From a virus, in IMG/VR virus record IMGVR_UViG_3300019758_000005, positions 1 through 40,672 of that record: 40,672 nucleotides of DNA. The stretch is one strand, 5' to 3'. The position numbers and the translations under genes are program-made. The notes below the pieces were generated by a model. That model saw nothing but the letters and a program-made list of their open reading frames with translations. It was not told where the DNA came from and ran no database searches. Positions within the stretch are counted from its first letter, which is position 1; every line of letters begins with the position of its first letter. Shown in pieces: positions 10,352-27,036 of the stretch.

Positions 10352-11841
10352 TGATATGCCCATCATGCGAGTCAGACAACCTGAAAACACACTCAGCAAA
10401 CCCGCCACGATGGATATGTGGCGACTGCTCAAAGACAACGCGCAAGCCGTTAGACGGTTATCAGTTCCCCGTAGTAGAAAAAACCAGCGACCGCTTCGTA
10501 ATTACATGGGCGCAGAACGCAACGGCCCCACACGCAAGCACACTGCGTACGCTTAAGCAGTATTGCAAGCACAACAGGGCTCAGTTATTGGTCATACCAG
10601 GTCGTTACCGTAATGCCACTAGCGTATGGACTAAGGCGCAAGAAGATCAAGATTGGTGGGATAAAGAGCTAACGCCACACCTGCTAGGCCATGAGCTTGA
10701 GCTTAACCGTAACTTAGTCGTTGGCGGTGATGTGAGGCTAACACCTACCGCGGCGAATCCATTACAGGGCATGAAGACGATTAGCGGTCATAAGTCATAC
10801 ATTCTAGGCCATCCACAGATTGCATTCGAGACAGTGGCAACGCCTCAAAGTAAGCTGGCTAAGATTGTGACGACTACTGGCGCAATCACTAAGATGAACT
10901 ACAGCGACACAACGGCTGGCAAGAAAGGCGAGTTCCATCATGAGCTAGGCGCAACACTGGTTGAACTGGATGGAAGTAAGTTCCATATCCGCCAGCTTAT
11001 TGCTAACGGGCACGGGGTTATCTATGACCTAGACAAACGCTATGATGGCAAGACAATCAAATCTAAGCAGCGTGCTGAGTTCTTTGTGTCTGGTGATTTC
11101 CATGGGAAGTATCTTGACGAACAAGTAAAGGCAGCTTGGTGGACTGGTAAGGACAGCCTGTTCAACCTAATCAAACCAAAGGCGCAAGTGTTTCATGATG
11201 TGTTCGATGGTTATTTTGGTTCGCACCATCACAGGCACGACCCGTTTTTAGGTGTAAAGAAGCATTTTAAGGGTGAAAACGATGGCCAAAACGAATTAAT
11301 CGACACATTACAGAAACTTGATGACTGCTTATTAGCTGATAAAAACTACATTACGAAGTCAAACCATGATGAACACTTAGACCGCTGGCTAAAAGAAACA
11401 GATTGGCGCAAAGATCCGGCTAATGCTGAGTTCTACCTTGAAACGGCGCTAGAGATAGTTAAGGTCATCAAGCACGGTGGAAGCTTTGACCCGCTGGAGT
11501 ACTGGGCTAATAAGTCGGGACTGGCTAAGAAAGCTATATTCCTCAAGCGCAGCGACACGGTAAGCGTCAAGGATTACGTGTTGTCAATGCATGGGGACAA
11601 AGGCAGCAATGGCGCTCGGGGTTCACTCAAGGGCTTTGATGCTATCGGTTCGCGTAGTGTTACAGGCCATAGTCATTCACCAGGAAAAGAAAAAGGCGCT
11701 TGGCGTGTTGGTATTAGTTGCATTTATGGTTTAGAGTACGCAGTAGGTAGTCCGTCTAGCTGGATGCAAACGGGCGTTATTGGATATGCTAACGGCAAGT
11801 GTTCGCTGATTAGTTGTATTGATGGCAGTTACCGCGCCTAG
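10348..11841 (+). CDS. Zinc-ribbon plus calcineurin-like metallophosphoesterase (possible nuclease)
   Basis: N-terminal CPSC...CGDC. The C-terminal half carries ordered MPE motifs: SGDFHG, HDVFDG, SNHDEH, MHGDKG, TGHSHSPG. Confidence 0.65.
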   Translation: MMICPSCESDNLKTHSANPPRWICGDCSKTTRKPLDGYQFPVVEKTSDRFVITWAQNATAPHASTLRTLKQYCKHNRAQLLVIPGRYRNATSVWTKAQEDQDWWDKELTPHLLGHELELNRNLVVGGDVRLTPTAANPLQGMKTISGHKSYILGHPQIAFETVATPQSKLAKIVTTTGAITKMNYSDTTAGKKGEFHHELGATLVELDGSKFHIRQLIANGHGVIYDLDKRYDGKTIKSKQRAEFFVSGDFHGKYLDEQVKAAWWTGKDSLFNLIKPKAQVFHDVFDGYFGSHHHRHDPFLGVKKHFKGENDGQNELIDTLQKLDDCLLADKNYITKSNHDEHLDRWLKETDWRKDPANAEFYLETALEIVKVIKHGGSFDPLEYWANKSGLAKKAIFLKRSDTVSVKDYVLSMHGDKGSNGARGSLKGFDAIGSRSVTGHSHSPGKEKGAWRVGISCIYGLEYAVGSPSSWMQTGVIGYANGKCSLISCIDGSYRA

Positions 11842-13726: not shown

Positions 13727-13871
13727 ACAAAGGCCGCAATACCCGCCCATCATGCCACTCGCAGCCATACTCAAGCCAGCGCACTACCTGCGTGCGACTA
13801 ACTCCTATTGAGCGGGCAAACTTTGATACGTTGCCCGCGTGGTTTTGGGTTATGTGCTGGGATAGGGTCAT
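13710..13871 (-). CDS. Small Cro/YdaS-like HTH protein (53 aa, below the track cutoff)
   Basis: Hand translation: MTLSQHITQNHAGNVSKFARSIGVSRTQVVRWLEYGCEWHDGRVLRPLFNSPN. Its ATG immediately follows the upstream stop (TAAATG). Its 3' end overlaps the terL 3' end by 17 nt. Confidence 0.6.
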   Translation of the reverse strand: MTLSQHITQNHAGNVSKFARSIGVSRTQVVRWLEYGCEWHDGRVLRPLFNSPN

Positions 13872-14123
13872 TTAATAACCACCTAATTTTTTGGCTTGCT
13901 TGTATTGAGATGTAACTCTGTTTACGTCTCGCCTAGCAGAGCAGGATTTACAACAGTCGCCAAGTCCATGCAATTGCTCTTTTGTGCATTTGCATTTTTC
14001 TCTTGCATCTAACACCATTTTTTGTGTTATTAATGAGCTGTAGTGCTTTAAAGTTAAAAGCTCTTGACTGTAGTGATCGGCATCGTTATCAAGCTTTACG
14101 CTTCCGATAAAATGAAAGGCCAT
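13872..14123 (-). CDS. Cys-rich small protein (83 aa), unknown function
   Basis: Track ORF containing KCKCTKEQLHGLGDCCKSC. Its start overlaps the upstream stop (TAATG). Confidence 0.55.
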   Translation of the reverse strand: MAFHFIGSVKLDNDADHYSQELLTLKHYSSLITQKMVLDAREKCKCTKEQLHGLGDCCKSCSARRDVNRVTSQYKQAKKLGGY

Positions 14124-14290
14124 TATCGGCCAACCATTTTGCTATGTTCTTCGTAAGCTTTCTGCCCTTCCAGTAGATCATTAAATGCATCTACAAGATT
14201 CTGGTTTGGATTGGTATTCCTAACCAAGGCCAGTGCGTTAATATAATCTTGCTCGAAAGGTGTTTTGTTTTTTGGTAGGTTGTTGTTCAT
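14123..14290 (-). CDS. Small hypothetical protein (55 aa, below the track cutoff)
   Basis: Hand translation: MNNNLPKNKTPFEQDYINALALVRNTNPNQNLVDAFNDLLEGQKAYEEHSKMVGR. A strong RBS (AGGAGG) lies 6 nt upstream. Confidence 0.55.
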   Translation of the reverse strand: MNNNLPKNKTPFEQDYINALALVRNTNPNQNLVDAFNDLLEGQKAYEEHSKMVGR

Positions 14291-14334
14291 GTTGTGCCTC
14301 CTAGGCGTTTTGTTTGTTTCGTTTCGATGTAGTA

Positions 14335-14362
14335 ATAATACAATACTGTGTTATTTATACAA
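14335..14362 (-). promoter_or_regulatory. Candidate promoter of the minus-strand cassette (TTGTAT-N16-TATTAT)
   Basis: On the minus strand the -35 is at 14362-14357 and the -10 at 14340-14335. The -35 overlaps the TATTTATACA box at 14352-14361. Confidence 0.4.
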
Positions 14363-14423
14363 GCATTAATTTCAATTTATTTTGGTATGTTACAATTAAC
14401 CCAATTATCTACAGGGCCAACTA

Positions 14424-15833
14424 ATGAGCGTTTCCACTACACATCCGAACTATAATGATTTCGTGCCAATCTGGAAGCGCACCGGCGATTGCGCAGAGGG
14501 CGAGCCTCGCATCAAAGCTGGCGGGGCATTCTACCTGCCTGCTGAATTCTCTAATGATACAGAGCGCTTTAACTACTATTTACAACGCGCCTATTTCCTT
14601 GGTGCGACTAAACAAGCCCTAGCCTCAATCGTGGGCATGGTCATGCGTAAGCCTGGTGAAGTTGAATTGCCGCCACGCCTTGAAGAGCTATCCGAGAATA
14701 TAGACGGTTCCGAGCGTTCTATTAATCAGATGGCGAAGTATTCAGTGACTGAGGTAGGCATTAAAGGCCGCATTGGCTATCTTGCGGACTATCCGCCGGC
14801 ACCCGAGGGCATTAGCAAAGAACAGCAGCGCTTAGGTGGCTATCGTCCGTATATGAAAGCTTATACGGCTGAATCCATTATCAATTGGCGCGAAGAGGTC
14901 ATCAATGGCCGTAATATGCTAACAATGGTTGTGCTTAAAGAACAGGTAGAAGACAACGATCTAGACGAGTTCGCCCACAAATTTGAAGATCAATATCGAG
15001 TATTACGCCTGCGTGATGGCGTTTACACTCAACAGCTATACGATAAAGACGGCACGGCAGGCGAGGAGCTGGTAGTGCGCCAAGGCGGTAAGCCGATGGA
15101 TCACATTCCCTTCTATTTCGCAGGTGCTGAAAATAATCAGCCTGATTGCGATATGCCTTTGATGTATGAGATTGCCACGCTTGATTTGGCTTACTACCAG
15201 ACAACTGCTGACCATCGTGAGAACTTGCACCAGCAGGGGCAGATTACCGTAGGCGTGGCCACAGAATACGATCCAGAAGTATGGAAAGAAGCCAACCCTA
15301 GTGGTTTCAAAGTTGGCGCTCGCACAGTTACAAATCTTGGCCCAGGGGGTTCATTCTCGTCTGTGTCAGTGCCGCCAATTACTGGCATTAGTAACGAACT
15401 TGACTACCTAAAGCAGACCATTATCGGCGCAGGTGGTAAGATCATCCAGAAGAGTGGTCAAGCTGAAACAGCAGAAGCTACTCGTATTAATGCCAGCGCT
15501 CAAAACAGTATGCTTGAAACGATGGTTGATAATATCTCAGAGGCCATGCGCTTATGTTTGAAGGAATTAGCCGCATTCATGGGTGAAACTGGCGAAGTGG
15601 TATTTGAGCTAAACAAAGACTTCTTTGATGACTCACTCGATGCAAACGTGATCAACGCAGTAACAAGTATGCAAGCCGCTGGCGTTATTGCTAAGCGCGA
15701 CACTCGTTACATGTTACGTCAAGGCCGTATTGCAATCGAGGAGGGGCGCACGGATGAAGATATTGATCTTGATATTGCCAGTGAGGTTGCACTACCTGAT
15801 GAACCTTCCGAGGCTTCTGCACCGCTAGAATAG
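14424..15833 (+). CDS. Portal protein (DUF4055-like N-terminus)
   Basis: 469 aa in the position after the terminase genes. The N-terminal YNDFVPIWKRTGDCAEGEPRIK..YLP pattern is recalled from DUF4055-type portals. Confidence 0.7.
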   Translation: MSVSTTHPNYNDFVPIWKRTGDCAEGEPRIKAGGAFYLPAEFSNDTERFNYYLQRAYFLGATKQALASIVGMVMRKPGEVELPPRLEELSENIDGSERSINQMAKYSVTEVGIKGRIGYLADYPPAPEGISKEQQRLGGYRPYMKAYTAESIINWREEVINGRNMLTMVVLKEQVEDNDLDEFAHKFEDQYRVLRLRDGVYTQQLYDKDGTAGEELVVRQGGKPMDHIPFYFAGAENNQPDCDMPLMYEIATLDLAYYQTTADHRENLHQQGQITVGVATEYDPEVWKEANPSGFKVGARTVTNLGPGGSFSSVSVPPITGISNELDYLKQTIIGAGGKIIQKSGQAETAEATRINASAQNSMLETMVDNISEAMRLCLKELAAFMGETGEVVFELNKDFFDDSLDANVINAVTSMQAAGVIAKRDTRYMLRQGRIAIEEGRTDEDIDLDIASEVALPDEPSEASAPLE

Positions 15834-15899
15834 CTATGTTATTATTAGTGTATAAGACATGGCAGGTGCCATGTCAAGCATTATTTATCAGGGGATAAA

Positions 15900-16550
15900 A
15901 TGCCATTACAAATTGAACACGAAGGTAAACAATTAACCGTTTACACGCAAAAAGAATTAGATACCGAAGTTGCTGGACTTAAAACAACCAATGCCAACTT
16001 AAAAGCAGAGAAAACCGCCGAGATCGAAAAGGCGCGTGAAGCAAACGAACAAAAGCTAGCAGCAGAAGAAGCAGCAGCAAAAGCGCAAGGCGATACAGAA
16101 GCGCTTAAACGCATTTCTGAGCAGCGCGAGCAAGAAGCCAAAGCCAAGCTAAACGAGTTTAAGGCCACTATTCAAGCCGAGAAAGTAACCAACATGATTA
16201 ACAAGGTTACTGATACATTAGGTGCGACTGGTCAGAAGAAAGAAGATTTAGAGGTGCTAATTAAAGCACGTTATGAATTCGGATATGACATGGACGCACA
16301 CGCTGCCACCGTACGAGGCGAGGGTGTGTCAAGTGTCGACGATGTTATAAAAGTCATCAAAGAGAGTGGGCGTTATGATGCTTACTTGCCAGGTGACGGT
16401 TCCACAGGCGGAGGTTCGCAGGGGAACAATGGAGCGGGTGCTTCCACACGTAAATTTAGTGATTACACAAGTAATGAGCTGGTCGCGCTTAAACGCACTG
16501 ATCCGGCTGCATATGAAAAACTACGAAGCACCGCTTCACACCTAAACTAA
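15900..16550 (+). CDS. Scaffolding protein
   Basis: 216 aa, rich in Ala/Glu/Lys with coiled-coil character (KAEKTAEIEKAREANEQKLAAEEAAAKAQ). Lies between the portal and major capsid genes. Confidence 0.7.
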   Translation: MPLQIEHEGKQLTVYTQKELDTEVAGLKTTNANLKAEKTAEIEKAREANEQKLAAEEAAAKAQGDTEALKRISEQREQEAKAKLNEFKATIQAEKVTNMINKVTDTLGATGQKKEDLEVLIKARYEFGYDMDAHAATVRGEGVSSVDDVIKVIKESGRYDAYLPGDGSTGGGSQGNNGAGASTRKFSDYTSNELVALKRTDPAAYEKLRSTASHLN

Positions 16551-16560
16551 GGAGCCACTA

Positions 16561-17571
16561 ATGGCAACAACGCAATTAATAGACGTTATTGACGTAACAG
16601 TCTTTCAAGATTTACCATCTGTTAACTCTCCGGAGAAAACAGCTTTTTATGAGTCGGGCGTAGCCGTTCGCACTCCGTTACTTGACAATCTAGCTAACGC
16701 AGCAGGTAAGAAAGCCGAGCTACCATTCTGGACTGACATCGACGCATCTATTGATGCAAATATTTCAAGCGATGATCCAGCAGTATTGGCAGCCGCTCAG
16801 AAGATCGAGCAAGGCGAACAAATCAGCCGCAAAGCGATGTTAAACAAAGGCTTATCAGCTTCTGATTTAGCAACTGAGTTGGCCATGGGCGAGAACGCCA
16901 TGCAGCACATTCGTAACCGTGTTGACACCTACTGGACTCGTCAATGGCAGCGTCGCTTGATTGCAGCTTGTGATGGCGTACTAGCTGACAACATCTCAAA
17001 CGATGGCGGTGACATGGTTGTAGACGTAGCTTCTGAATCAATCGCTGGCCAGTCTGCTGCGACTAAATTCAGCCGTTCTAACTTCACTGCTGCTGCGTTC
17101 ACTTTAGGCGATGCGTTCACTAATACCGGTGCAATCGCTGTTCACTCTCAAGTGTACAAGCAAATGGTTGACGCTGATGACATCGACTTCATCCCTGACT
17201 CACAAGGTCAAATGACTATCCCAACTTACATGGGCAAACGTGTAGTAGTTGACGATGGCATGACTGTTACTGCTGGCTCAACTGATGGCTTCAAATATAC
17301 AACTGTATTGTTTGGCGCTGGCGCATTCGGTTATGGCGAAGGTATGCCAGAATACCCAGTTGAACTACAACGCTCAGAAGCAGGCGGCAACGGTGGTGGT
17401 ATCTCTACCCTATGGACTCGTAAGACCCAAATCTTGCATCCGTTCGGTTTCCAGCATACTGGCACTCCAGCTGGTGACTCGTTCACAATTGCTGAGCTTA
17501 AACTTGCAACAACTTGGAATCGTGTTGTAGACCGTAAGTTAGTACCGTTGGCGTTCTTAATCACCAACTAA
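16561..17571 (+). CDS. Major capsid protein
   Basis: 336 aa, directly after the scaffold gene and followed by a strong terminator. RBS AAGGAG. Confidence 0.75.
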   Translation: MATTQLIDVIDVTVFQDLPSVNSPEKTAFYESGVAVRTPLLDNLANAAGKKAELPFWTDIDASIDANISSDDPAVLAAAQKIEQGEQISRKAMLNKGLSASDLATELAMGENAMQHIRNRVDTYWTRQWQRRLIAACDGVLADNISNDGGDMVVDVASESIAGQSAATKFSRSNFTAAAFTLGDAFTNTGAIAVHSQVYKQMVDADDIDFIPDSQGQMTIPTYMGKRVVVDDGMTVTAGSTDGFKYTTVLFGAGAFGYGEGMPEYPVELQRSEAGGNGGGISTLWTRKTQILHPFGFQHTGTPAGDSFTIAELKLATTWNRVVDRKLVPLAFLITN

Positions 17572-17579
17572 TTAGAATA

Positions 17580-17600
17580 GCCCCCGCAAGGGGGCGTTTT
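17580..17600 (+). terminator. Rho-independent terminator after the capsid gene
   Basis: GCCCCC-gcaa-GGGGGC followed by gTTTT. Confidence 0.8.
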
Positions 17601-17610
17601 AGGGTAAAAC

Positions 17611-17808
17611 ATGGCAGAATTAAACAAAGATGGCCTAATAGTAGGTCAAGAAGTAGATTTTACAACCATCATGCGAATTAACCGCGAACGCAAACAAGAG
17701 GGCGTAAAGAATGACAACACTGATAAGCCCGACCTATGCGACGCCGGAAACTCAGATCTACCAGTCGTACAAAAAACAGCACGACCGAAAAAGACGAAAA
17801 AGTCATAA
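17611..17808 (+). CDS. Small basic hypothetical protein (65 aa)
   Basis: Track ORF with a weak RBS. Its last 98 nt overlap the next ORF out of frame, so its reality is uncertain. Confidence 0.35.
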   Translation: MAELNKDGLIVGQEVDFTTIMRINRERKQEGVKNDNTDKPDLCDAGNSDLPVVQKTARPKKTKKS

Positions 17809-18340
17809 CCCTGGTTTTATAGTTAGTTATCCATACGTCACAAACTTCGTTCCAGGCTACTTAGATCCTGAAAACTGGGCTGTAGCTGACCCTGATGGCT
17901 CAGTTATCAATACAGAAATAGATAACCCGAGTGATTCAAATATCGCTGGATTGTGCAGTATCACCAGTGGGAACTTAACAATACTCACAACCTTCAGTTC
18001 TTTTAATTCTCTTTCTGGTGAAAAAATATATATGTGTCTCATTGTCAAGAATATAGATGCTGAAAATATATTTGTTCGATTCCAGAGTGATGCAGGAATA
18101 GCCGATCAAACTCAGGTGAGCTTGACGACACTATCAAAAGTGACAGGTGGATCAAATATACTGACCCAAGATCTATCAAATGGGTTTAGCTTGTTGCAGA
18201 TTGAATATGTGACTATTAGCGACTTAATAAACGCGGATGTCTTGGTTTATTTAAATGGAGATGGAGGTTCTGTTTATTTACAAGCTGCATTTTTCGGAAA
18301 GGCTGACGACTTCCCAGCTAACGTGATGCCAACGCTATGA
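17711..18340 (+). CDS. Structural protein with jelly-roll-like domain (paralogous to the insertion in the 25900 gene)
   Basis: GEKIYMCLIVKNIDAEN, DLSNGFSLLQIEY and YLQAAFFGKADDFPA match GDKVYMSILVKPEDTSG, DLDNGFLLWECFY and YVQATFFGKADDWPA in ORF 25900-27036. ATG 17711 is the only start in this frame (RBS GAGGG). Confidence 0.6.
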   Translation: MTTLISPTYATPETQIYQSYKKQHDRKRRKSHNPGFIVSYPYVTNFVPGYLDPENWAVADPDGSVINTEIDNPSDSNIAGLCSITSGNLTILTTFSSFNSLSGEKIYMCLIVKNIDAENIFVRFQSDAGIADQTQVSLTTLSKVTGGSNILTQDLSNGFSLLQIEYVTISDLINADVLVYLNGDGGSVYLQAAFFGKADDFPANVMPTL

Positions 18341-19149
18341 GAGTGCCATCAATATTACAAGGGCTACCTGATGACCTGCTGACCAGTTATGTGGTTGAAA
18401 AGAGACTGGTTAAAGTCTACTCAGAAGACTATCTGTCTCTAATATCGAAAGGTCAGATAGCTGGCCACAAAATGCTCTATGTGAATTCAAACGCTGAGAT
18501 TATAGGTGCCACTGAAAAATTAATTTGGCCGTTTGATAGTGCTTACGTTTACAATGACACGCCAGCTACATTGTATTTATCCAGTACTAGCGCTGGGGAT
18601 GCTGGTTCTGTATTAATTGAATGGCTAGACTCTGATTATAAGCAGCAAACATCTGTAGTTGCTCTCAATGGCCAGACACCAGTGGCGTTTGCACTGGGCG
18701 TAGGGTTAAGGGTTAACAAATGCAGAGCCATCGGTTCTATAACTCCAACAACTGGCGACGTTTATATCTCGAGAGAGAATAATCACACTGCTGGTGTGCC
18801 CAACAATACGGCCTCAATACTTAGTGCGTTTAAGGCAACATCACAAACCAGTAACCTTGCTGCATTCACAGTGCCAGCGGATAAAACTTTATTTGGTGTA
18901 ACCGGTTACTTTAGTGCGCCAAAGGGCAGGGACAACGACTTCTACTGGAACGTTAGAAACCCAACACTTGGCATTCCGCCAACTCGCACAAACGTGGTTA
19001 GCGTGTACCAAAGTACAATAGAAGTTGATTTTGCTTTGACTGCTATTCCAGAGAAAACAGACGCTTATTTTTCAGCCAATACTCAGACATCTAGTGGCCG
19101 TGTTAGTTGTCGAGTTGTTGGTGTACTGGTTGATAACGAATATTTATAG
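18337..19149 (+). CDS. Hypothetical virion protein
   Basis: 270-aa ORF, ATGA-coupled to the upstream gene, inside the head/connector block. Confidence 0.6.
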   Translation: MRVPSILQGLPDDLLTSYVVEKRLVKVYSEDYLSLISKGQIAGHKMLYVNSNAEIIGATEKLIWPFDSAYVYNDTPATLYLSSTSAGDAGSVLIEWLDSDYKQQTSVVALNGQTPVAFALGVGLRVNKCRAIGSITPTTGDVYISRENNHTAGVPNNTASILSAFKATSQTSNLAAFTVPADKTLFGVTGYFSAPKGRDNDFYWNVRNPTLGIPPTRTNVVSVYQSTIEVDFALTAIPEKTDAYFSANTQTSSGRVSCRVVGVLVDNEYL

Positions 19150-19156
19150 GTGATAT

Positions 19157-19582
19157 ATGGCACTAATAGGCTACGTAACAACAGAAGCATATGAGGCGGC
19201 GGCAGCGGCTAGGGGTATCACCCTAACCAAAGACTCGGCGCAAATGCTTACGCTTGCACTTGACTATATGCAATTGCAATCATACAAAGGTGAAAAAACA
19301 GACCCTAATCAGTCTCTTGCATTTCCCCGCGACGGCAGCACAGAGATTCCACCAGACATTATTGGGGCGCAAATACAGGCGGCTGTAATTTATGACCAAG
19401 GCGGCGACCCTATTGGCACAGTCGGCCCACGAGTAATTGAGAACACCGTACACGGCGCAGTGACACAGCGCTTTAGCGACTCAGGCACAAGCACGCCAAT
19501 CTACCGCAAGCTTAATGCAGCTTTGCGACCGTTCTTATCGAATGGTGGCTCAGGACTGCAAATGGTGGCTACTCGTGGCTGA
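19157..19582 (+). CDS. Head-tail adaptor (gp6 / DnaT_2-like)
   Basis: The ALDYMQLQSYKGEKTDPNQSLAFPRDG pattern (..LaFPR.G) is typical of gp6-like connectors as I recall them. Position is consistent. Confidence 0.5.
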   Translation: MALIGYVTTEAYEAAAAARGITLTKDSAQMLTLALDYMQLQSYKGEKTDPNQSLAFPRDGSTEIPPDIIGAQIQAAVIYDQGGDPIGTVGPRVIENTVHGAVTQRFSDSGTSTPIYRKLNAALRPFLSNGGSGLQMVATRG

Positions 19583-19922
19583 TTTCTATGACAATATGCA
19601 AGGCGTGGCCACTGAGCTTTTGACTGAGTTTAATCAAGGCTCTATGTCATACAATTACATTACGGGCGGCACAAGCCCGTTTGATGGGCCTGCTACAGCT
19701 ACAGCGGTTCCATTTAAAGGCACTGCTACTGGTGTTGCGTTTAAATACCGTAATGACCTTGTGACGGCTTCTGATATTGAAATTACGGCGGCTGTGTTTG
19801 ATCCTGCACCACTACCTAATGGCACTGTGACTATTGACGGAACAGAGCGCCAAATCCTATCAGTGATGGCAATCCCCGCCGCTGGCACCCCTTCCATATA
19901 TAAAATATTTGTCAAAGGCTAA
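19575..19922 (+). CDS. Hypothetical head-tail joining protein
   Basis: Track ORF 19515-19922. GTG 19575 is preferred (RBS GGTGG, overlaps the upstream stop). ATG 19542 and ATG 19596 are alternatives. Confidence 0.5.
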   Translation: MADFYDNMQGVATELLTEFNQGSMSYNYITGGTSPFDGPATATAVPFKGTATGVAFKYRNDLVTASDIEITAAVFDPAPLPNGTVTIDGTERQILSVMAIPAAGTPSIYKIFVKG

Positions 19923-19937
19923 TCTTTGGGCTAGTAT
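19909..19937 (+). promoter_or_regulatory. Sigma70-type promoter (TTGTCA-N17-TAGTAT) inside the late block
   Basis: -35 at 19909-19914 and -10 at 19932-19937. The inverted repeat AGTATC-atggac-GATACT (19933-19950) overlaps the -10. Confidence 0.5.
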
Positions 19938-19967
19938 CATGGACGATACTGACTAAAGGAGAGTAAA

Positions 19968-20291
19968 ATGGCAAAACTAACACGCGAACAAGTAGCACAG
20001 CTTAGTGATGTAGAGCTTAATCGGGGTATAGCTTGGTGTTATCCAACAGATGGGTGCGTATGGAATGATGGTTTCTTTCATTACTGCTCATTAAAAGGTG
20101 CATTGAATTACCTAGCCGACTACAACCTGACTATGCCGCTGGCGGTTAAGTATAGACTTTGTATACAACCAGCAAAAGCAAGCCCTGACGCATGGCTTAG
20201 CTATGATAAACACGGCGCATCATCATTTATGCGTGCAAACCCACTACGCGCAATCTGCGAAGTACTGTTAATGATAGCTATGGAGAAATAG
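19968..20291 (+). CDS. DUF2591 / phage ABA-sandwich-like protein
   Basis: N-terminal LSDVELNRGIAWCY and the overall size resemble that phage family, from memory. Confidence 0.45.
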   Translation: MAKLTREQVAQLSDVELNRGIAWCYPTDGCVWNDGFFHYCSLKGALNYLADYNLTMPLAVKYRLCIQPAKASPDAWLSYDKHGASSFMRANPLRAICEVLLMIAMEK

Positions 20292-20293
20292 AC

Positions 20294-20521
20294 ATGACTC
20301 TAACAACTATCGAAGGCATATTTGAATCAAAGACTCAATTCACCCTTATAACAGGCTCAAAACCAAGTAAGATATTAATGGACAAAGCCACTTATAATTT
20401 GTTTTACGCAAATGAGCTATCACTGAACCCAGAATCAGTAATGTATAAGGATTATACCAGTGGGTCAATCTTGGTTTTCGGCATGCCCATTTATAAATCA
20501 GACAGGAGCTGCATATTATGA
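20294..20521 (+). CDS. Hypothetical protein
   Basis: 75-aa track ORF, tightly packed with its neighbours. Confidence 0.5.
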   Translation: MTLTTIEGIFESKTQFTLITGSKPSKILMDKATYNLFYANELSLNPESVMYKDYTSGSILVFGMPIYKSDRSCIL

Positions 20522-20724
20522 CCACATTCTGGCCAAAACGAGACGAAGACGGGCGACATATTAGCGAGCCAAAACCACTATCCGAACTAATAGCAAAACT
20601 CGACCCTGATGTTGTTGAGCGGGCGCGGGCGGATGTTGATAATGAATTGAAGTGCGCCAAGTGCGATGGGTATCAGATAATTGCATTAGATGGCGAAATA
20701 TACAATTGCGAGTGCACAGAATGA
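20518..20724 (+). CDS. Small protein with C-terminal Cys cluster
   Basis: 68 aa ending CAKCDGYQ...YNCECTE. ATGA coupling on both sides. Confidence 0.5.
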   Translation: MTTFWPKRDEDGRHISEPKPLSELIAKLDPDVVERARADVDNELKCAKCDGYQIIALDGEIYNCECTE

Positions 20725-21746
20725 CAATCAACCTAGACCTAATCGCAAGCCGCCAAGAGTCCGCAATGTTGCGCGCATTCACTCAGGCCATTAGCGATAT
20801 AAAAAACAGCACTAAGCTGTCCGAATTAGAGCGCCTTATTTCGGACAATGATATTGATGGAGCCATTCGCCTACTTGGCCTAGAACCCGCATCTTTTGAG
20901 GGTTTAGAGGAGGAGATATACCAAGCCTATCGTACAGGAGGGTTGACAGGAGCGGCCCAAATTTGGTCTGTTCCAACCCAGATTGGGACTCTTTCTATGA
21001 ACTTCAATATTTCAGCGCCCGCAGCTGTTGAATGGGTACGCAATCAGTCTAGCCAATTTATTACTGAGATGGCCGAAGGCCAGCAACAACTTGTTCGTGA
21101 AGTGATAGCTACCAACTTAGACAAGGGCATCAATCCTAGACAGTCTGCACTTGACCTAATCGGGCGCGTGAACGACGCAGGCAAGCGTACAGGCGGTAAC
21201 ATAGGGCTAACAACACAACAGGCCGGATGGGTTAGTAAAGCCCGTGAAGAGCTACAGAGCATCGATAAGAACTATCTATCCCGTGACTTGCGAGACAAGC
21301 GGTTTGACTCGCTAGTGCAGAAAGCCATTGCTGATGGTAAGCCACTAACCAAAGCGCAGATTGATAACGCTATTACTCAAATGCAGAACAAGACCTTGAA
21401 GTACCGCGGTGACGTTATTGCGCGTACTGAGTCTATCAATGCACTGCGTGCTGGCCAGCATGAATCGCTAATGCAGGCAGCCGACAAGGGCGACGGCTCG
21501 CGGGATGATGTTAAGCGTTTTTGGGATGCCAGTGGTGATAAGCGCACACGACTAGACCATTTATTAATGGAAGACCAAGAACGCACTGGTGATGCACCGT
21601 TTACGTTCCCTGATGGATCACAGGCACGATTCCCTGGTGACAACAGTCTAGGCGCACCAGCCAAGCAGCTTATTCAGTGCCGTTGCCGTGAGCGCATAGA
21701 GATTGATTTTATAGGTCGACTGAAAAGAATTGACGGGTTTAGGTAG
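20721..21746 (+). CDS. Head morphogenesis protein, MuF / SPP1 gp7 family
   Basis: C-terminal FWDASGDKRTRLDHL...FTFPDG...PGD...LIQCRCRE matches the MuF signature (..H.nCRC). Start set at ATG 20721 (ATGA overlap). Confidence 0.75.
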   Translation: MTINLDLIASRQESAMLRAFTQAISDIKNSTKLSELERLISDNDIDGAIRLLGLEPASFEGLEEEIYQAYRTGGLTGAAQIWSVPTQIGTLSMNFNISAPAAVEWVRNQSSQFITEMAEGQQQLVREVIATNLDKGINPRQSALDLIGRVNDAGKRTGGNIGLTTQQAGWVSKAREELQSIDKNYLSRDLRDKRFDSLVQKAIADGKPLTKAQIDNAITQMQNKTLKYRGDVIARTESINALRAGQHESLMQAADKGDGSRDDVKRFWDASGDKRTRLDHLLMEDQERTGDAPFTFPDGSQARFPGDNSLGAPAKQLIQCRCRERIEIDFIGRLKRIDGFR

Positions 21747-21758
21747 TGGTGCTAGGCT
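21730..21758 (+). promoter_or_regulatory. Sigma70-type promoter P6 (TTGACG-N17-TGcTAGGCT), GGTGCTA family
   Basis: -35 at 21730-21735, inside the end of the MuF gene. -10 at 21753-21758, just after its stop and preceded by GGTGC. Confidence 0.5.
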
Positions 21759-21782
21759 GGGTTAAACCATTGGAGTAACGAC

Positions 21783-22238
21783 ATGACAACCCTAGCCTAC
21801 AGCCGCAAAGAAAACGTGATAGCCGTTGATAGCCGATGCACTAGCGGAGGCATAGCGATTAGCAATAAATCAAACAAATGGATAACCAAGGGGCAGAACG
21901 TTTATTTCTTCTGCGGTGATGTGGCAGACGTTGAGCGATTAGTTGACCTTATCGAAGATGGCATAGAACAGCTAGATGAAGGCGAGCACCTAGATGCCAC
22001 CGTTATTCTGGCGCTACCTGAGCCAATGACTTTTTACGTTGATGATTCTATTATCAAGACCTATAAGCTGCATTATGATGATTACACAGCTTATGGCACT
22101 GGCGCACCTTGGGCTTTATCCGCATTTGATCACGGAGCCACCGCTAAAAAGGCCGTCGAATACGCCATGACCCGCGACATATACACAGGCGGCAAGGTGG
22201 TACAATATGACCTAACAAAGCAGAGGTTTAAGAAGTGA
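21783..22238 (+). CDS. HslV / proteasome-beta-like N-terminal-Thr hydrolase
   Basis: Starts MTT. Collinear by eye with E. coli HslV: VIAVDSR, SNKSNKW, FFCGDVADVE, YGTGAPWA, RDIYTGG. RBS GGAG. Its stop overlaps the next GTG start. Confidence 0.75.
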   Translation: MTTLAYSRKENVIAVDSRCTSGGIAISNKSNKWITKGQNVYFFCGDVADVERLVDLIEDGIEQLDEGEHLDATVILALPEPMTFYVDDSIIKTYKLHYDDYTAYGTGAPWALSAFDHGATAKKAVEYAMTRDIYTGGKVVQYDLTKQRFKK

Positions 22239-22645
22239 CCTTCACCGCAAGTATAGACAAATTCATTGCCAAGTCTGAGGCTAAGCTCGAGGCCGTAGTC
22301 AAGACTGCTGTGCAAGATACAATCAACGAAGCGCAGACAATAGACGATAAGGGCGGCTTTATGCGGTTCGACACTGGCTTTCTTGCTAATAGCGGCATGG
22401 CTTCTATTGGTACATTGCCAGTTGGCGAGAGCAAAAACCCAGGTATTCAGCTACCAGAATGGAATCCACAATCAATAGCAGCTGCATTATTACAATGGGA
22501 CTTAAACAGCCCTTTCTATTTTGGATGGGTTGCAAACTACGCCAGAGCGCGTGAAAACAAAGACGGATTCATGAGACGAGCGGCGCAGAATTGGCCGCAG
22601 CATGTTAATAAGGCAGTGGCTAAGGTTAAGGCGGCGAGTAAATAA
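22235..22645 (+). CDS. HK97 gp10-like tail completion / head-tail joining protein
   Basis: FIAKSEAKLEAVVKTAVQDTINEAQ...DTGFLANSG fits the gp10 family pattern. GTG start with RBS AGAGG. Confidence 0.6.
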   Translation: MTFTASIDKFIAKSEAKLEAVVKTAVQDTINEAQTIDDKGGFMRFDTGFLANSGMASIGTLPVGESKNPGIQLPEWNPQSIAAALLQWDLNSPFYFGWVANYARARENKDGFMRRAAQNWPQHVNKAVAKVKAASK

Positions 22646-23037
22646 TGCAAACAAACTCAGATATATATCAAGCGTTTATTGAGAAAATCAACACAGCCTT
22701 CGGCAATGATTTCAGAATTAGCTATGAGGGCTACAGTTTTACGCCCCCAAGTAATGGTATTTGGCTAGAGCTTAAACACTTTCCGAATACTGGCATTGAT
22801 CAATCTTTGTCCAGCAATACGGTATTAGCTCAAGGTTTATTCCAAGTAACTGCAAAGAGTCGCAAGGAGAAGGGCATCAAGCATATTTACAATACATGCA
22901 ATTTGGTACAGGCTGAATTTCCAAAGAACACAATAATCGCTGGCACATGCCGAGTGAGTGCTGTACCTTACCAGTCTAGCCCACTAACAGAAGACGACCG
23001 CATATCGGTTGGGCTTACCATTCCCTACTCTGAATAG
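22645..23037 (+). CDS. Tail terminator-like protein (DUF4128-like)
   Basis: 130 aa immediately upstream of the tail tube gene. The IYQAFIEKINTAF... pattern resembles DUF4128 / gpU-type proteins, from memory. Confidence 0.5.
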   Translation: MQTNSDIYQAFIEKINTAFGNDFRISYEGYSFTPPSNGIWLELKHFPNTGIDQSLSSNTVLAQGLFQVTAKSRKEKGIKHIYNTCNLVQAEFPKNTIIAGTCRVSAVPYQSSPLTEDDRISVGLTIPYSE

Positions 23038-23090
23038 CTAGCTTTAATTATGGTATCATTGGCTTACATTTAAACCAATGAGGAAAACCC

Positions 23091-23549
23091 ATGGCTGAAC
23101 TATTAAAGTCCGGCGTTGGTGCTACGTTTAGCATCGTTGCCGGCGAACCTGCTACCTATGACGATACCGGCTTTGCTGCTCTAACATTCGCAGAAGTTGG
23201 CGAAGTTATTTCTATTGGCGCTTACGGCGGCACAGCAGAAGTCCTAACTCAAACACCTGTCAAGTCTGGCATCATCAAGAAAGTAAAAGGCTCCACTAAC
23301 TACGGCTCTCAAACGCTACAGTTCGGCCTTGAGACTGATACCGGCCAAGCTGCCCTACAGTCTGGCTTTGATGGCGCTAACAAAGACGCAATCCACAGCG
23401 TTAAGCTTGAATATTCTGACGGCTCTGTACGTTATTACACCGGCCTTGTGACTTCTTTCGAGTTCCAAGAAATTAGTGCAAGCTCGTTCGTAAACGCCGC
23501 TTCGACTATTGAAGTGAACAATTCAGTTGTAGACGTGGTACCTGCATAA
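23091..23549 (+). CDS. Major tail tube protein
   Basis: 152 aa, in the position before the chaperone pair and tape measure. No sheath gene is present. Confidence 0.7.
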   Translation: MAELLKSGVGATFSIVAGEPATYDDTGFAALTFAEVGEVISIGAYGGTAEVLTQTPVKSGIIKKVKGSTNYGSQTLQFGLETDTGQAALQSGFDGANKDAIHSVKLEYSDGSVRYYTGLVTSFEFQEISASSFVNAASTIEVNNSVVDVVPA

Positions 23550-23550
23550 T

Positions 23551-23931
23551 ATGGATTTATCTAGTCTAGCCCTTGAGCAAACCGCTGAAATGATTCTAAA
23601 AGATCCAGTGTCCGGTGTGGATACCGACGCCGTGATTGTTTTATACGGCAAAGACTCAAAACAGTATCGTGACGCTTTTGCAGTACAAGCAAAGAAAGCC
23701 GCAGCCATGAAAGCAAGCGATAGCGATTATCAGGAAAAGCTCTCGGAGCTAGGCTTAGATATTTTCATCAAATGCACCAAGGATTGGCGCAATGTAGGAC
23801 TAGACGGGAAAGAGCTAGAATGCACGCCTGAAAACGTGGCAATGATGTACAAAGACGAGCGCTTTGTATGGATACATAATCAAATTAGTGCCTTCATGGA
23901 GAAGCGCGCAAATTTTATGAAGCGTCCATAG
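23551..23931 (+). CDS. Tail assembly chaperone (G-like)
   Basis: 126 aa between the tube and tape measure genes. Carries a slippery heptamer near its 3' end. Confidence 0.7.
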   Translation: MDLSSLALEQTAEMILKDPVSGVDTDAVIVLYGKDSKQYRDAFAVQAKKAAAMKASDSDYQEKLSELGLDIFIKCTKDWRNVGLDGKELECTPENVAMMYKDERFVWIHNQISAFMEKRANFMKRP

Positions 23932-24278
23932 AGGCGCTTTTAAACTGGGCAAAAATGGAGGCGTTTCTTGATACAACTCCAAACGAGGCCAAAATATGCA
24001 GGCGTGAACAAGGTGGATTAAAGTCCAACCCAAAAGGGCCATTGGCTTACCTGATTGATACGTTTAACGAGCTTGGCCAAATTGTTTCAGGCGATGGCGG
24101 TCAACTAAGGCCGCTTAACTGGTCAGACTTGGCTGGGTATTGCCAAGTGACCGAAACAAAGCTTGACCCGTGGGAATGTAAAACCCTAATAGATATGTCA
24201 GTCACTTATTTGTCTTCACATTTTAAATACAAAGACCCGCGCAGTCTAGCGCCTATAGCTGGAGAATTTAATGGCTGA
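23551..24278 (+). CDS. Tail assembly chaperone GT-like frameshift fusion product
   Basis: A -1 slip at 23910-23916 joins the G frame to the frame of track ORF 23955-24278. This is the conserved arrangement upstream of tape measure genes. Confidence 0.55.
23910..23916 (+). promoter_or_regulatory. -1 programmed frameshift slippery site A_AAT_TTT
   Basis: In the G frame the codons are GCA AAT TTT. The -1 frame is open from 23889 through 24278. Confidence 0.6.
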
Positions 24279-25899
24279 TATTGCAGAGTTAGGTTTAAAG
24301 ATAAACAGCCAACCAGTTGAACAAGCTGGTGCAAAGCTAAAGAATTTCGGCAAGATTGCGAGTGATACAGAGCGCAAGGTACTGCAGTCCACTAATGGTA
24401 TGGCCACTGGGTTTAAGTCGTTTAACACGTCTGTTAAGTCCGCCGCACCAGTTGTTACTACGTTTGAAAAAACCGCAAAGACGGCCGCCACTACAAGTGG
24501 TAACTTCTCTAATAGCATTCGTCAAATATCACTACAGCTTTCACAGGTAGCGCAGCAAGGTGCCGTGACCGGTGACTTCTTCCGCGCGTTTACTGTCCAG
24601 CTTCCGGATTTACTCCTAGGCTTTGGCACACTTGGTATCTTGATTGGTGCAGTGGCCGGCGCACTGGGCGGGCCGTTGATTGATGCGCTAACAGGTTCAA
24701 GCAAGGCGATTAAGAATGTAGACGAAGACATTGCAGACTTAACAGATGGCTTTGAGGAGCTAACAGACGCGCAACGTGCTTATGTTCTTTTGTCGTCTGA
24801 AATAAAGCAAGCTGACTTGCAAAAAGAATTCGACGATATAGCGCAAGAAGTAAAGACCGCTGCTGATGAATTAAAGGTGCTTGAGCAGGGCTTTAGACTT
24901 ATATCTCGTGGCGATAGAACGCAGCGGGTTACTGTGGCTGCGGATGCAGAAGACATTCAAGAAGCCGAGCTTGCACTGAAAAGACTTAGTGCGGTTCGTG
25001 ACAATATAAGCTTAAAGCTTGAGCGTGAGATAAAGCTACAAGATGAATTAAAAAACGCCACTGATTTAACAACTCAGGCAGCGCTTGAAGCCAGCCGTGA
25101 ACAATCAAGGACTGACCTACTTAATCAGCTTGAGAATGCAACAGACGCCATACGTACAGCAGGTAGTACACAAACAGAGATAGCAGTCCGCGCGGCCAGT
25201 GAGCGTAACTCTATTTTGGCAGCTGCTTATAATCAGGACTTGATTAGTTTTGCTGAGTACCAAGAGCAGCGTGTTCAAAACCAGTTAAACCTACAAGCCG
25301 AACTAACAGAGATTGACGAGAAAGCGCAACAACAACGCACACAGATACTAACAGCAGGCCAAGAGGCAGCTTTATCAGCCAGTGGTCAGCTATTTGGGAA
25401 TCTTGCGGCCATTGCAAAAGAAGGCGGGGAGGATCAGTTCCAAGAGTATAAAAACCTTGCGAGCGCTCAGGCTGCTATTGCTGCATCATTGGCAGCTATT
25501 AAGGCATTAGCGGAGGGTGGCCCGATACTAGGGCCAGCTTTGGCTGTATCTATTGGTGCCGTTGCTGCAATCCAGATTGCCAAGATACAAGGTCAAGAAT
25601 ACCAATCTAGCCGCGCAAGTGGGGGGCAAGCTAAAGGCCGTGTATTAGTTGGTGAGAACGGGCCAGAAATATTAAACATGGGTAACAGCACTGGCTCTAT
25701 TACTTCAGCTGCTGGCACGAAACAAGAGTTAGGTGGCCAAACCGTCCAACAGGTATTTAACATATCACCTGGACTATCCGGTGCAATCCAAGCCGAAATG
25801 CGAGCTATGTTACCATTGATAAAACAAGTTGCCATTAGTGGCGTATCAAGCGATATAAGAAACGGCGGCTCGACCGCCAAGGCCGTGGGGATTAGATAA
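24271..25899 (+). CDS. Tape measure protein
   Basis: 542 aa with coiled-coil and Ala/Gly-rich hydrophobic segments (LGILIGAVAGALGGPLI, GPALAVSIGAVAAIQIA). Position is canonical. Confidence 0.85.
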   Translation: MADIAELGLKINSQPVEQAGAKLKNFGKIASDTERKVLQSTNGMATGFKSFNTSVKSAAPVVTTFEKTAKTAATTSGNFSNSIRQISLQLSQVAQQGAVTGDFFRAFTVQLPDLLLGFGTLGILIGAVAGALGGPLIDALTGSSKAIKNVDEDIADLTDGFEELTDAQRAYVLLSSEIKQADLQKEFDDIAQEVKTAADELKVLEQGFRLISRGDRTQRVTVAADAEDIQEAELALKRLSAVRDNISLKLEREIKLQDELKNATDLTTQAALEASREQSRTDLLNQLENATDAIRTAGSTQTEIAVRAASERNSILAAAYNQDLISFAEYQEQRVQNQLNLQAELTEIDEKAQQQRTQILTAGQEAALSASGQLFGNLAAIAKEGGEDQFQEYKNLASAQAAIAASLAAIKALAEGGPILGPALAVSIGAVAAIQIAKIQGQEYQSSRASGGQAKGRVLVGENGPEILNMGNSTGSITSAAGTKQELGGQTVQQVFNISPGLSGAIQAEMRAMLPLIKQVAISGVSSDIRNGGSTAKAVGIR

Positions 25900-27036
25900 A
25901 TGGCAGACTTTCCAAATATTGAACCGGATTTAGAAGAGATTGGTTTGATTGCTAATAATCAGATTTATGATTCAATCCTAACTGGCCAAGTTCAAACAGC
26001 ATCATTAAGCGGTGCGAAATGGACGTGCACACCAACATTCAGTAACCGCAACGGCAAAGAAGCGCGTGATTTACGTGCATTTATCTTTGGGCAGAATGGT
26101 GTGTCTGGCCGGTTTAATTATTATCCTGCCTCAATAGATAACGTTGGCACACATGCTGGGCTGGGTGTGGTCGATGGAGCTGGGCAAACTGGAAGCACAT
26201 TAGAGACTACGGGATGGGATGCTGATCAGCCTCTGTTGTTTGCTGCTGGTGATTACATAACCGCAAACGGCGAAATGAAGATGGTGACTGCTGATGTACC
26301 AGTGGGGCAGGATTATATTGAGTACGATGAAACTAATTACATGCCTAGTCCGTTTGATCCGAGTGGTTGGACTGATGGCGCTAACGGCACAGTTGACAAC
26401 GTGATTATTGCCAATCCCTCTGGGGCGGATGTACTAGGATTAGCAGAACAAACAGACGTTGGCACTTTTACTTTTCAGGATAGTTTTTCTAATGATCTGG
26501 CAGTAAATATTGGCGATAAAGTATATATGTCAATATTAGTAAAACCAGAAGATACAAGCGGCACTTTTGACATAGTTATGGTTATGGGGGGCACCGCTGT
26601 GCCAACTAGAACGTTAAGATTTAACGCTAAAACAAATACATTTATATCTAGTAGCATGACAGGTTACAAAACCACAGACCTAGATAATGGTTTTTTATTA
26701 TGGGAGTGCTTTTACACAGTCCCAGCGAATGATTCTGATATGTTTGCACGGTACACATTTATTGAGAACGGCGGCGGCGCTGATGCGCCAATAGGTTCTA
26801 AATGCTACGTACAAGCCACATTCTTCGGCAAAGCCGACGACTGGCCAGCTAAGCTACGCGCAAACGCAATCATACCAATCACGCCGCCTATGCGCACAAG
26901 TCCAGCTGATGGTGCATTGATAGAGGCTAGCAATCCCTACTTCCAAGGGCGCTTAGAATCGGATGACATGAGCCGTTTGCAGGTAAGCTCGCCAGTTATC
27001 TATAACACAACGCTTTCGATCGTGGAGGCGTTCTGA
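25900..27036 (+). CDS. Distal tail protein with an inserted jelly-roll-like domain
   Basis: First gene after the tape measure. Residues ~138-318 (nt 26311-26853) are paralogous to the C-terminal domain of ORF 17711-18340. Confidence 0.6.
   Translation: MADFPNIEPDLEEIGLIANNQIYDSILTGQVQTASLSGAKWTCTPTFSNRNGKEARDLRAFIFGQNGVSGRFNYYPASIDNVGTHAGLGVVDGAGQTGSTLETTGWDADQPLLFAAGDYITANGEMKMVTADVPVGQDYIEYDETNYMPSPFDPSGWTDGANGTVDNVIIANPSGADVLGLAEQTDVGTFTFQDSFSNDLAVNIGDKVYMSILVKPEDTSGTFDIVMVMGGTAVPTRTLRFNAKTNTFISSSMTGYKTTDLDNGFLLWECFYTVPANDSDMFARYTFIENGGGADAPIGSKCYVQATFFGKADDWPAKLRANAIIPITPPMRTSPADGALIEASNPYFQGRLESDDMSRLQVSSPVIYNTTLSIVEAF

Follow-up and report, generated by a model that had tools for sequence, protein, structure and literature searches.

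The PPH family of phage-encoded proteasome-like proteins was named and described bioinformatically by Fuchs et al. 2021 (PMC8665760). Its members come from Caudovirales and from the hosts of these phages, where they almost always stand in a prophage context, and are proteins of ∼140 residues that have no propeptide and lack helix H2 and the C-terminal S12/H5 elements; they radiate from the BPH cluster, with no co-occurring AAA+ partner and no informative genomic context (PMC8665760). Here we analyze a gene of this kind in a viral DNA stretch of 40,672 nucleotides (IMG/VR record IMGVR_UViG_3300019758_000005, positions 1 to 40,672), called the window below, where it lies between a MuF-like minor head gene and a Neck1-like gene. 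Its product can be assigned to the PPH family, and we read it, with a probability of about 0.6, as an accessory, predicted catalytically competent cytoplasmic N-terminal nucleophile (Ntn) peptidase that is made with the late genes and is not a capsid protease. A preliminary description of the window, made from its letters, had taken the gene for an HslV/proteasome-beta-like threonine protease and had offered two readings of it, an unconventional virion maturation protease or a partner or decoy of the host unfoldase HslU (ClpY).

Profile and structure searches agree on the nature of the protein. Pfam Proteasome (PF00227) matches residues 3–62 only, at 23.9 bits against a gathering cut-off of 22.4, and PHROG 1040 (‘peptidase HslV family’) matches the full length (E = 2.9e-27). 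In a single-sequence phmmer search of the PDB, 20S beta5/beta5i matched at both protein ends, with aligned pairs that include TTLAYSRKENVIAVDSRCTSG at one site and AMTRDIYTGGKV against AAHRDAYSGGSV, and a profile of 121 homologs matched beta5i collinearly over the full length (E = 1.8e-12). When the 121-homolog profile was aligned to E. coli HslV with hhalign (probability 91%, E = 1e-6), Thr1, Asp17, Lys33, the GxxxD glycine and the G-S/T-G motif all fell in register. The motif pairs that had been matched to HslV by eye were thereby recovered, and the Thr1, Lys and Gly-Thr-Gly positions, on which the preliminary description had staked its identification, align with those of HslV.

An AlphaFold2 (AF2) model built from the 121-sequence alignment (pLDDT 97.1, pTM 0.91) has the alpha-beta-beta-alpha sandwich of Ntn hydrolases. 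Foldseek with this model returned 690 PDB chains at E ≤ 1e-3, with beta5/beta5i at the top (E about 2e-9, TM-score normalized by the query about 0.68), as well as 49 viral predicted structures, so that the structural comparison with 20S beta subunits suggested earlier did find an Ntn-hydrolase fold. Identity and fold are thus almost certainly those of a proteasome-beta/HslV-type Ntn hydrolase, as had been proposed.

Conservation was scored on the alignment of the 121 PPH homologs (A2). Residues M1, T2, K32, G45, G105, G136 and G137 are invariant in it, and at least 90% of the sequences share T3, Y6, D16, R18, D49, S/T106, G107 and D132; position 106 is Ser in most homologs and Thr in the window's protein. 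By sequence, the full catalytic set of an active beta subunit is conserved. Toward its C-terminus the protein has RDxY[ST]GG, the motif of 20S beta subunits and not that of HslV, which makes ‘proteasome-beta-like’ a more exact label than ‘HslV-like’. Against orthologues that are 81–97% identical, the ratio of nonsynonymous to synonymous substitution rates (dN/dS) is 0.02–0.08, and the codon comparison marks the gene as real and under strong purifying selection.

Assignment to PPH was tested against the described features of the family, with the PHROG 1040 match (E = 2.9e-27) serving as a proxy for the published set's representative, WP_042125023.1. The window's protein is phage-encoded, 151 aa long and starts with MTT; DSSP assigns helices in the model only to residues 47–58 (H1), 108–116 (H3) and 121–129 (H4), so that H2 is absent and no helix follows H4. 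Listed homologs span 138–199 aa, most of them 138–160 aa, which puts the window's protein at the long end of the family. For almost every one of the 150 representatives listed, the profile match begins at residue 1, indicating that they have no propeptide.

The family is large. By tblastn, at least 135 phage records in GenBank carry a homolog, none of them more than 37% identical to the window's protein; among the carriers are Pakpunavirus/Nankokuvirus, SPN3US-like jumbo phages, phiCbK-like phages, Xanthomonas OP1, and phages of Vibrio, Shewanella and Rhizobium. Many of these homologs have been annotated as ‘peptidase HslV family’, ‘proteasome subunit beta’ or ‘nucleophile aminohydrolase’. A profile search of a 5.8-billion-protein set gave 916 clusters, and when 1.84 billion representatives were searched exhaustively, the number of clusters rose from 327 with E ≤ 1e-30 to 2,187 with E ≤ 1e-10 and 7,201 with E ≤ 1e-3; the figure of ∼2,200 family clusters refers to the 50% identity level and E ≤ 1e-10. 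The names of cluster members gave no further information. A PPH relative is encoded in 113 IMG/VR stretches, and prophage or orphan copies occur in Pseudomonas, Pseudoalteromonas and Halomonadaceae. A scan of bacterial genomes returned nothing with alignment A1 and only 16 loci with alignment A3. Head-module ‘protease’ genes of the Microbacterium phages Lifes and BarnCat (H57/H58; ∼4.6–4.9 kb) match only residues 96–151, at 44% identity, and may be distant proteasome-like or AAH-type relatives in a structural context, judging from that partial match.

The preliminary description knew of no characterized phage system of this kind. That stands as far as experiments go, none having been found, but the family already had a name (PPH, PMC8665760) and is routinely annotated. 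The description had also allowed that homologs might prove to be a common, already characterized prohead protease family; the outcome comes close to this, as the family is widespread and described, yet described is not characterized. In a jumbo phage, an HslV-family protein tagged with green fluorescent protein localized to the phage nucleus, and the authors speculated on an anti-defense role (bioRxiv 10.1101/2023.02.24.529968); that protein may not strictly be a PPH. The window shows no new kind of system. What it contributes is a divergent member, matched by no phage homolog in GenBank at more than 37% identity, of a family that matters for carrying an apparently catalytically intact proteasome-like enzyme through thousands of phage lineages.

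Nothing essential separates the window's protein from the published PPH, with which it shares a length of ∼140–150 aa, the propeptide-free MTT start, an intact Thr1/Asp/Lys/Gly site, the lack of H2 and S12/H5, carriage by tailed phages and prophages of Proteobacteria, and the lack of an associated AAA+ gene; its gene lies in a late connector-gene block rather than in an early region. The 20S subunits beta5/beta5i (MEROPS T1; PF00227) are its best sequence-profile and structure matches, which share its catalytic set, RDxY[ST]GG included, as well as a hydrophobic S1-floor residue, but the PPH protein is ∼50 residues shorter and lacks the propeptide, H2 and the C-terminal H5 helix, and the window encodes neither alpha subunits nor 7-fold heteromeric partners. 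With HslV (ClpQ) it shares the MTT N-terminus, in which Met removal exposes Thr1, the Asp17/Lys33/G-S-G register and a compact single-domain subunit. It differs from HslV in being 25 residues shorter (151 versus 176 aa, as the preliminary description had estimated), in lacking H2, in its beta-type C-terminal motif and in having no adjacent hslU, and a score of 16 bits against 137 for the NCBIfam equivalog NF003964 shows that it is not an HslV orthologue. BPH and Anbu, compared by description, are likewise stand-alone proteasome-like subunits without a known ATPase partner, but they are cellular and longer, BPH having a long acidic pore loop and Anbu a long C-terminal helix (PMC8665760). Prohead proteases (HK97 gp4/S78, U9/U35, ClpP-like S14, S49 and T4 gp21/S77) resemble PPH only in genomic setting, in that PPH of the window's phage and of a few lineages lies within the morphogenesis operon, sometimes right after the portal gene; their fold and catalysis are of the herpesvirus-like Ser or ClpP Ser type as opposed to Ntn Thr, and PPH is not co-inherited with the head module and usually lies elsewhere in the genome.

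Relatives of the window's lineage, gathered through an alignment of MuF, share the order portal–scaffold–major capsid protein (MCP)…Ad1–Hc1–MuF–Neck1–terminator–major tail protein (MTP), in which MuF sits within the connector-gene block and does not adjoin the portal gene. PPH homologs occupy three slots of this block, Ad1|Hc1, between Hc1 and MuF, and MuF|Neck1, and at least ten loci have the module without a PPH homolog (L119, L120, L127–L129, L132–L136 and L140). Other genes are found in such slots: HNH homing endonucleases (L127, L128 and L132) or an endonuclease VII/HNH gene (L131) between MuF and Neck1, a DNA methyltransferase gene between Neck1 and the terminator (L116), and an esterase/lipase-like gene between Hc1 and MuF (L119). 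In one relative of order Ad1–Hc1–MuF–Neck1, IMGVR_UViG_3300025889_000038 (37,124 bp; MuF 59% identical to the window's), a six-frame hmmsearch of the 32.5 kb fetched found no PPH homolog at E ≤ 10, the window itself serving as positive control (6e-49). When L110 and L111 are compared with the window over 20721–22238, MuF is 85% identical and the adjacent PPH only 48%, which indicates mosaic exchange.

From these gene orders, the connector-gene block (Ad1/Hc1/MuF/Neck1/tail terminator) emerges as an insertion hotspot with the PPH gene as one of its cargoes, and the gene is probably accessory, not an obligate morphogenesis gene. The location in a structural operon, which had hinted at a capsid protease, is explained by this hotspot, a result that points to host-directed or accessory roles and away from head maturation. 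Slots of the connector block (window 19150–23040; relatives L115–L141) also hold small reverse-strand open reading frames (ORFs), or nothing.

The survey of homolog neighborhoods that the preliminary description had recommended places PPH mostly outside structural modules. In the seven cultured phages viewed in detail, the gene lies in non-structural regions, whether early, replication or other accessory: among NinG, DnaD and DnaB in Shewanella 3/49, among helicase, ligase and DprA in KPP10, in the early arm near the p7 transcription inhibitor in Xanthomonas OP1, in the early/DNA-metabolism region of VpV262, as gp1 beside tRNAs in SPN3US, among small genes after the lysis cassette in HHBS14_1, and between NinG and the terminase gene in phiAH14a (PMC4936722). 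For a context count, 77 IMG/VR loci were collapsed to 43 clusters at 60% identity. A recognizable structural gene lies within six genes of PPH in only 10 of these 43 non-redundant viral clusters, a count that underestimates structural contexts because the hidden Markov models for structural neighbors were seeded from the window. MuF lies within three genes in 7 of the 43, against ∼4 expected by chance in a genome of ∼60 genes, a weak association that is plausibly another hotspot effect.

Some neighborhoods are of interest in their own right. In a prophage of Pseudomonas sp. RGM2987 (L094, 7926–13351), PPH lies directly 5′ of a PF18894 (‘putative phage metallopeptidase’) gene; TerL, a portal gene (DUF4055) and MuF come next. 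In phiAH14a (genes 56–61), PPH is again directly 5′ of PF18894, with terminase and portal genes following and a small M48 peptidase gene nearby (PMC4936722). The PPH–PF18894 arrangement in Pseudomonas prophages may be a recurrent peptidase pairing. Pseudoalteromonas denitrificans DSM 6059 (L092, 7980–8417) has an orphan PPH at a chromosomal site that is not of phage type, surrounded by genes for large secreted PKD-domain proteins and for endonuclease I, in agreement with a remark of Fuchs et al. on Pseudoalteromonas (PMC8665760); this neighborhood gave no functional hint. In L069–L071, PPH stands directly 5′ (one gene further in L070) of a homolog of the window's 497-aa PHROG 1745 ‘DNA transfer protein’, which in the window (10348–11841) is encoded just 5′ of the small terminase gene.

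How an accessory late peptidase would work can be sketched from 20S/HslV chemistry. Methionine aminopeptidase removes Met before Thr, and the host enzyme would thus free the alpha-amino group of Thr2 as the nucleophile. As the conserved residues and that chemistry suggest, protons would be relayed through Asp16 and Lys32, Gly45 would supply the oxyanion hole, and Thr1 would be held in place, as it is in active beta subunits, by Gly105-Thr106-Gly107, Asp132 and Thr135. The gene would be transcribed within the long rightward late transcript, with no need for its own promoter, and its product translated from its own GGAG site, in coupling with the downstream Neck1-like gene through the GTGA overlap. 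As optional cargo of the connector-gene hotspot, it would stand outside the conserved head–tail machinery. The product would be a soluble peptidase in the cytoplasm of the infected cell, probably a self-assembled oligomer, working without a phage-encoded ATPase; neither an AAA+ unfoldase nor another peptidase is present among the window ORFs scanned, so that any ATPase partner would have to come from the host. Because its distribution is accessory and mosaic, we read PPH as an optional fitness factor that acts on host or phage proteins and not on the capsid. Its targets would be particular host or phage proteins or peptides, in a host-takeover or counter-defense function; a specifically host-directed role of such a cytoplasmic peptidase is the more tentative part of this proposal, to which we give somewhat less than an even chance.

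Several points weigh against this reading. The PPH gene of the window does belong to a late structural operon, in translational coupling with a neck gene. PPH also adjoins a PHROG 241 MuF gene or the portal gene in unrelated lineages, in the arrangements portal–[PPH]–MuF–x–scaffold–MCP (L052), portal–[PPH]–MuF (L067), portal–MuF–scaffold–[PPH] (L068) and [PPH]–MuF (L014), which would suit a virion-linked role there; to these are added the undercount of structural contexts noted above and the fact that the absence from IMGVR_UViG_3300025889_000038 covers only 87.5% of that contig. A literature search returned no experimental function for any PPH member, only annotations, the 2021 bioinformatic description and the jumbo-phage localization cited above. 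Moreover, BPH and Anbu show no clear proteolytic activity in vitro, and connectase acts as a ligase (PMC8665760), and by this analogy the label ‘peptidase’ may be wrong in detail.

The late, neck-coupled position is what chiefly recommends a maturation protease, which would be recruited to proheads and there trim or degrade scaffold, capsid, portal, MuF or tape-measure protein in place of a canonical prohead protease; the layouts with PPH between portal and MuF or after the scaffold gene, which are the classic protease position, and the 7 of 43 clusters with MuF nearby speak for it too. As the preliminary description had observed, no canonical prohead protease is recognizable in the window and a scaffold gene is present (15900–16550); the only Pfam and PHROG matches of the PPH protein are Proteasome and PHROG 1040. 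The head module, however, runs TerS, TerL, portal (DUF4055), scaffold (PHROG 206, 216 aa) and major capsid protein (PHROG 247, 336 aa). SPP1/P22-style assembly, with a separate scaffold and no delta domain, works without a protease, and we take the window's portal–scaffold–MCP layout to be of this type; as such a module needs no protease, the missing prohead protease needs no explanation. The same head and connector module occurs without PPH in relatives (L120, L133, L134 and others, one of them with no homolog in 32.5 of 37.1 kb), where HNH endonucleases or a methyltransferase occupy the same slots, PPH is non-structural in the seven cultured phages, and the MuF enrichment is weak and explicable by shared insertion hotspots. 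On protease-free head type, mobile slots, absence in relatives and mostly non-structural contexts, the first reading of the preliminary description becomes very unlikely. The position beside MuF could instead mean that PPH works with, or travels by way of, the MuF/portal-associated minor head protein, is packaged into the capsid and, once ejected, serves as an early effector in the next host. MuF domains are known to carry effector or toxin domains, late expression would suit packaging, and PPH occurs near MuF of two PHROG families (3517 in the window; 241 in L014, L052, L067 and L068). Yet the enrichment near MuF is slight, the MuF/portal vicinity is itself an insertion hotspot, most homologs lie far from MuF in early regions, and MuF and PPH have had different histories in close relatives (85% versus 48% identity), leaving such a packaged effector highly improbable.

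The second reading of the preliminary description, in which PPH forms HslV-like rings that dock onto host HslU and redirect degradation, or in a decoy variant titrate HslU, is weakened and in our judgment unlikely. HslV homology is detectable with the active site in register, no AAA+ partner is encoded among the window ORFs scanned, and homologs occur mainly in phages and prophages of Proteobacteria (Vibrio, Pseudomonas, Salmonella and Shewanella). HslV without HslU is a poor protease, and the Proteobacteria that host PPH phages usually encode HslU. The AF2 model, however, has no helix H2 on the H1/H2 face that HslV uses for HslU (PMC8665760), the best structure and sequence matches are 20S beta5 and not HslV, the C-terminal motif is of beta type, and NF003964 stays at 16 bits against its cut-off of 137. 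Fuchs et al. found no co-occurring AAA+ interactor (PMC8665760), and invariant catalytic residues together with strong purifying selection contradict the decoy variant. A non-degradative enzyme, using Thr1 chemistry for one defined reaction such as ligation, transpeptidation or amide/acyl removal, finds precedent in connectase, a specific ligase, and in BPH and Anbu, for which no clear general protease activity is reported (PMC8665760); the missing H2 and compact size may also not fit classical double rings. We consider it quite improbable, given that the model lacks a connectase-like S3/S4 insertion over the active site, that the closest matches are catalytically active beta5 subunits and that the gene neighborhood points to no defined substrate. 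More far-reaching than the preferred reading of an accessory late peptidase, and improbable as it stands, is the idea of PPH as ‘viral proteasomes’, self-assembling Thr-protease particles, ATPase-independent or using a host ATPase, that act against specific host proteins and, in lineages where the gene abuts MuF or the portal gene, might be loaded into the capsid and delivered to the next cell by ejection. If true, the targets might include immune sensors or effectors that respond to late structural proteins, and the window's phage, with its gene in a late operon and coupled to a neck gene, would represent the packaged or late-acting form.

Table 1. Features at and around the PPH gene (window coordinates)
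Feature	Position	Strand	Description and basis
PPH-family proteasome-beta/HslV-like Ntn hydrolase gene	21783..22238	+	151 aa, starts MTT; ORF list, Pfam, PHROG, AF2, Foldseek, dN/dS
Shine-Dalgarno GGAG of the PPH gene	21772..21775	+	7 nt before ATG; read from sequence
Thr2 codon, predicted N-terminal nucleophile (Thr1) after Met1 removal	21786..21788	+	Invariant, 121/121; aligns to Thr1 of beta5i and HslV
Asp16 codon (proteasome Asp17)	21828..21830	+	At least 90% in A2, invariant in A1; in register with HslV Asp17
Lys32 codon (proteasome/HslV Lys33)	21876..21878	+	Invariant in A2; in register with HslV Lys33
Gly45 codon (proteasome Gly47, oxyanion-hole glycine)	21915..21917	+	Invariant in A2; GxxxD spacing as in beta subunits
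Gly105-Thr106-Gly107 (proteasome Gly128-Ser129-Gly130, HslV G-S-G)	22095..22103	+	Aligned to GSG of HslV and beta5
Asp132...Thr135-Gly136-Gly137, RDIYTGG (proteasome Asp166/Ser169/Gly170)	22176..22193	+	Aligns to RDxYSGG of beta5/beta5i
MuF-like minor head / ‘head morphogenesis’ gene, 5′ neighbor of PPH	20721..21746	+	341 aa from ATG 20721
Neck1 / tail-completion-like gene, 3′ neighbor of PPH	22235..22645	+	PHROG 169, E = 5.1e-18
Three small ORFs (107, 75 and 68 aa) between head-closure gene and MuF	19968..20724	+	Part of variable connector-region island
Putative promoter TTGACG-N17-TGc-TAGGCT	21730..21758	+	Letters present, function unsupported

The ORF and its MTT start (Table 1) were found as first described, as was its place after the MuF-like gene with a stop that overlaps the GTG start of the next gene; the TGA stop and this GTG share the GTGA at 22235–22238. 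The MuF-like protein matches PHROG 3517 (E = 8.9e-97) and, slightly under the gathering cut-off, Pfam Phage_Mu_F (29.1 bits). Its mechanical ORF starts at GTG 20652, but the true start is very likely ATG 20721, given the ATGA overlap with the stop of the 68-aa gene (20518–20724) and the 341-aa gene calls in relatives. Beyond the Neck1-like gene follow tail terminator, major tail protein, chaperones and tape measure, as assigned by Pfam and PHROG. The presence of the three small ORFs differs among relatives, and none of them has an NCBIfam match. PADLOC returned no match for the PPH protein or its small neighbors, and thus no evidence of a link to a defense system.

A promoter straddling the MuF stop had been proposed for the PPH gene, and we rejected it as evidence. 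The letters are as stated, but the −10 element TAGGCT agrees with the consensus at 3 of 6 positions, a consensus promoter scan did not call the site, and promoter-like sites in 14000–27000 show no enrichment (19 found against 21.9 ± 4.2 expected in shuffled sequence); the site does not stand out from chance. In L116, a close relative, the start of the PPH homolog is overlapped by a 99-aa upstream ORF, an arrangement that leaves no room for a dedicated promoter there.

By its gene content and length the window resembles a siphovirus genome of ∼40 kb that is complete or almost so, and related metagenomic contigs measure 39–43 kb. It carries genes for a RecE-like exonuclease, a single-stranded DNA-binding protein, a Sak4-like annealase, a primase, a helicase, a methyltransferase and endonuclease VII, and no integrase was seen among the ORFs scanned. 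A near-DNA search against GenBank phages returned no relative.

A few further features of the structural region were recorded. A perfect GC-rich hairpin, GCCCCCGCAAGGGGGC, followed by GTTTT, stands at 17580–17599, 9 nt past the stop of the major capsid protein gene, and its sequence is suggestive of a terminator, intrinsic or attenuating, behind the capsid gene; terminator-like sites in 14000–27000 number 23, against 12.6 expected in shuffled sequence. The 209-aa protein encoded after the capsid gene (17711–18340) and the C-terminal part of the distal tail protein (25900–27036) have a common domain of ∼170 residues (33% identity, E = 2e-17) that ends in FFGKADD[FW]PA, so that one module is common to a head-proximal and a tail gene; relatives have this domain in a protein of 525–570 aa whose gene follows the tape measure gene. 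Between the large terminase and portal genes, ∼700 bp (13727–14423) contain no ORF of 90 aa or more on either strand, and a close relative (L001) has a 68-aa reverse-strand gene between these two genes.

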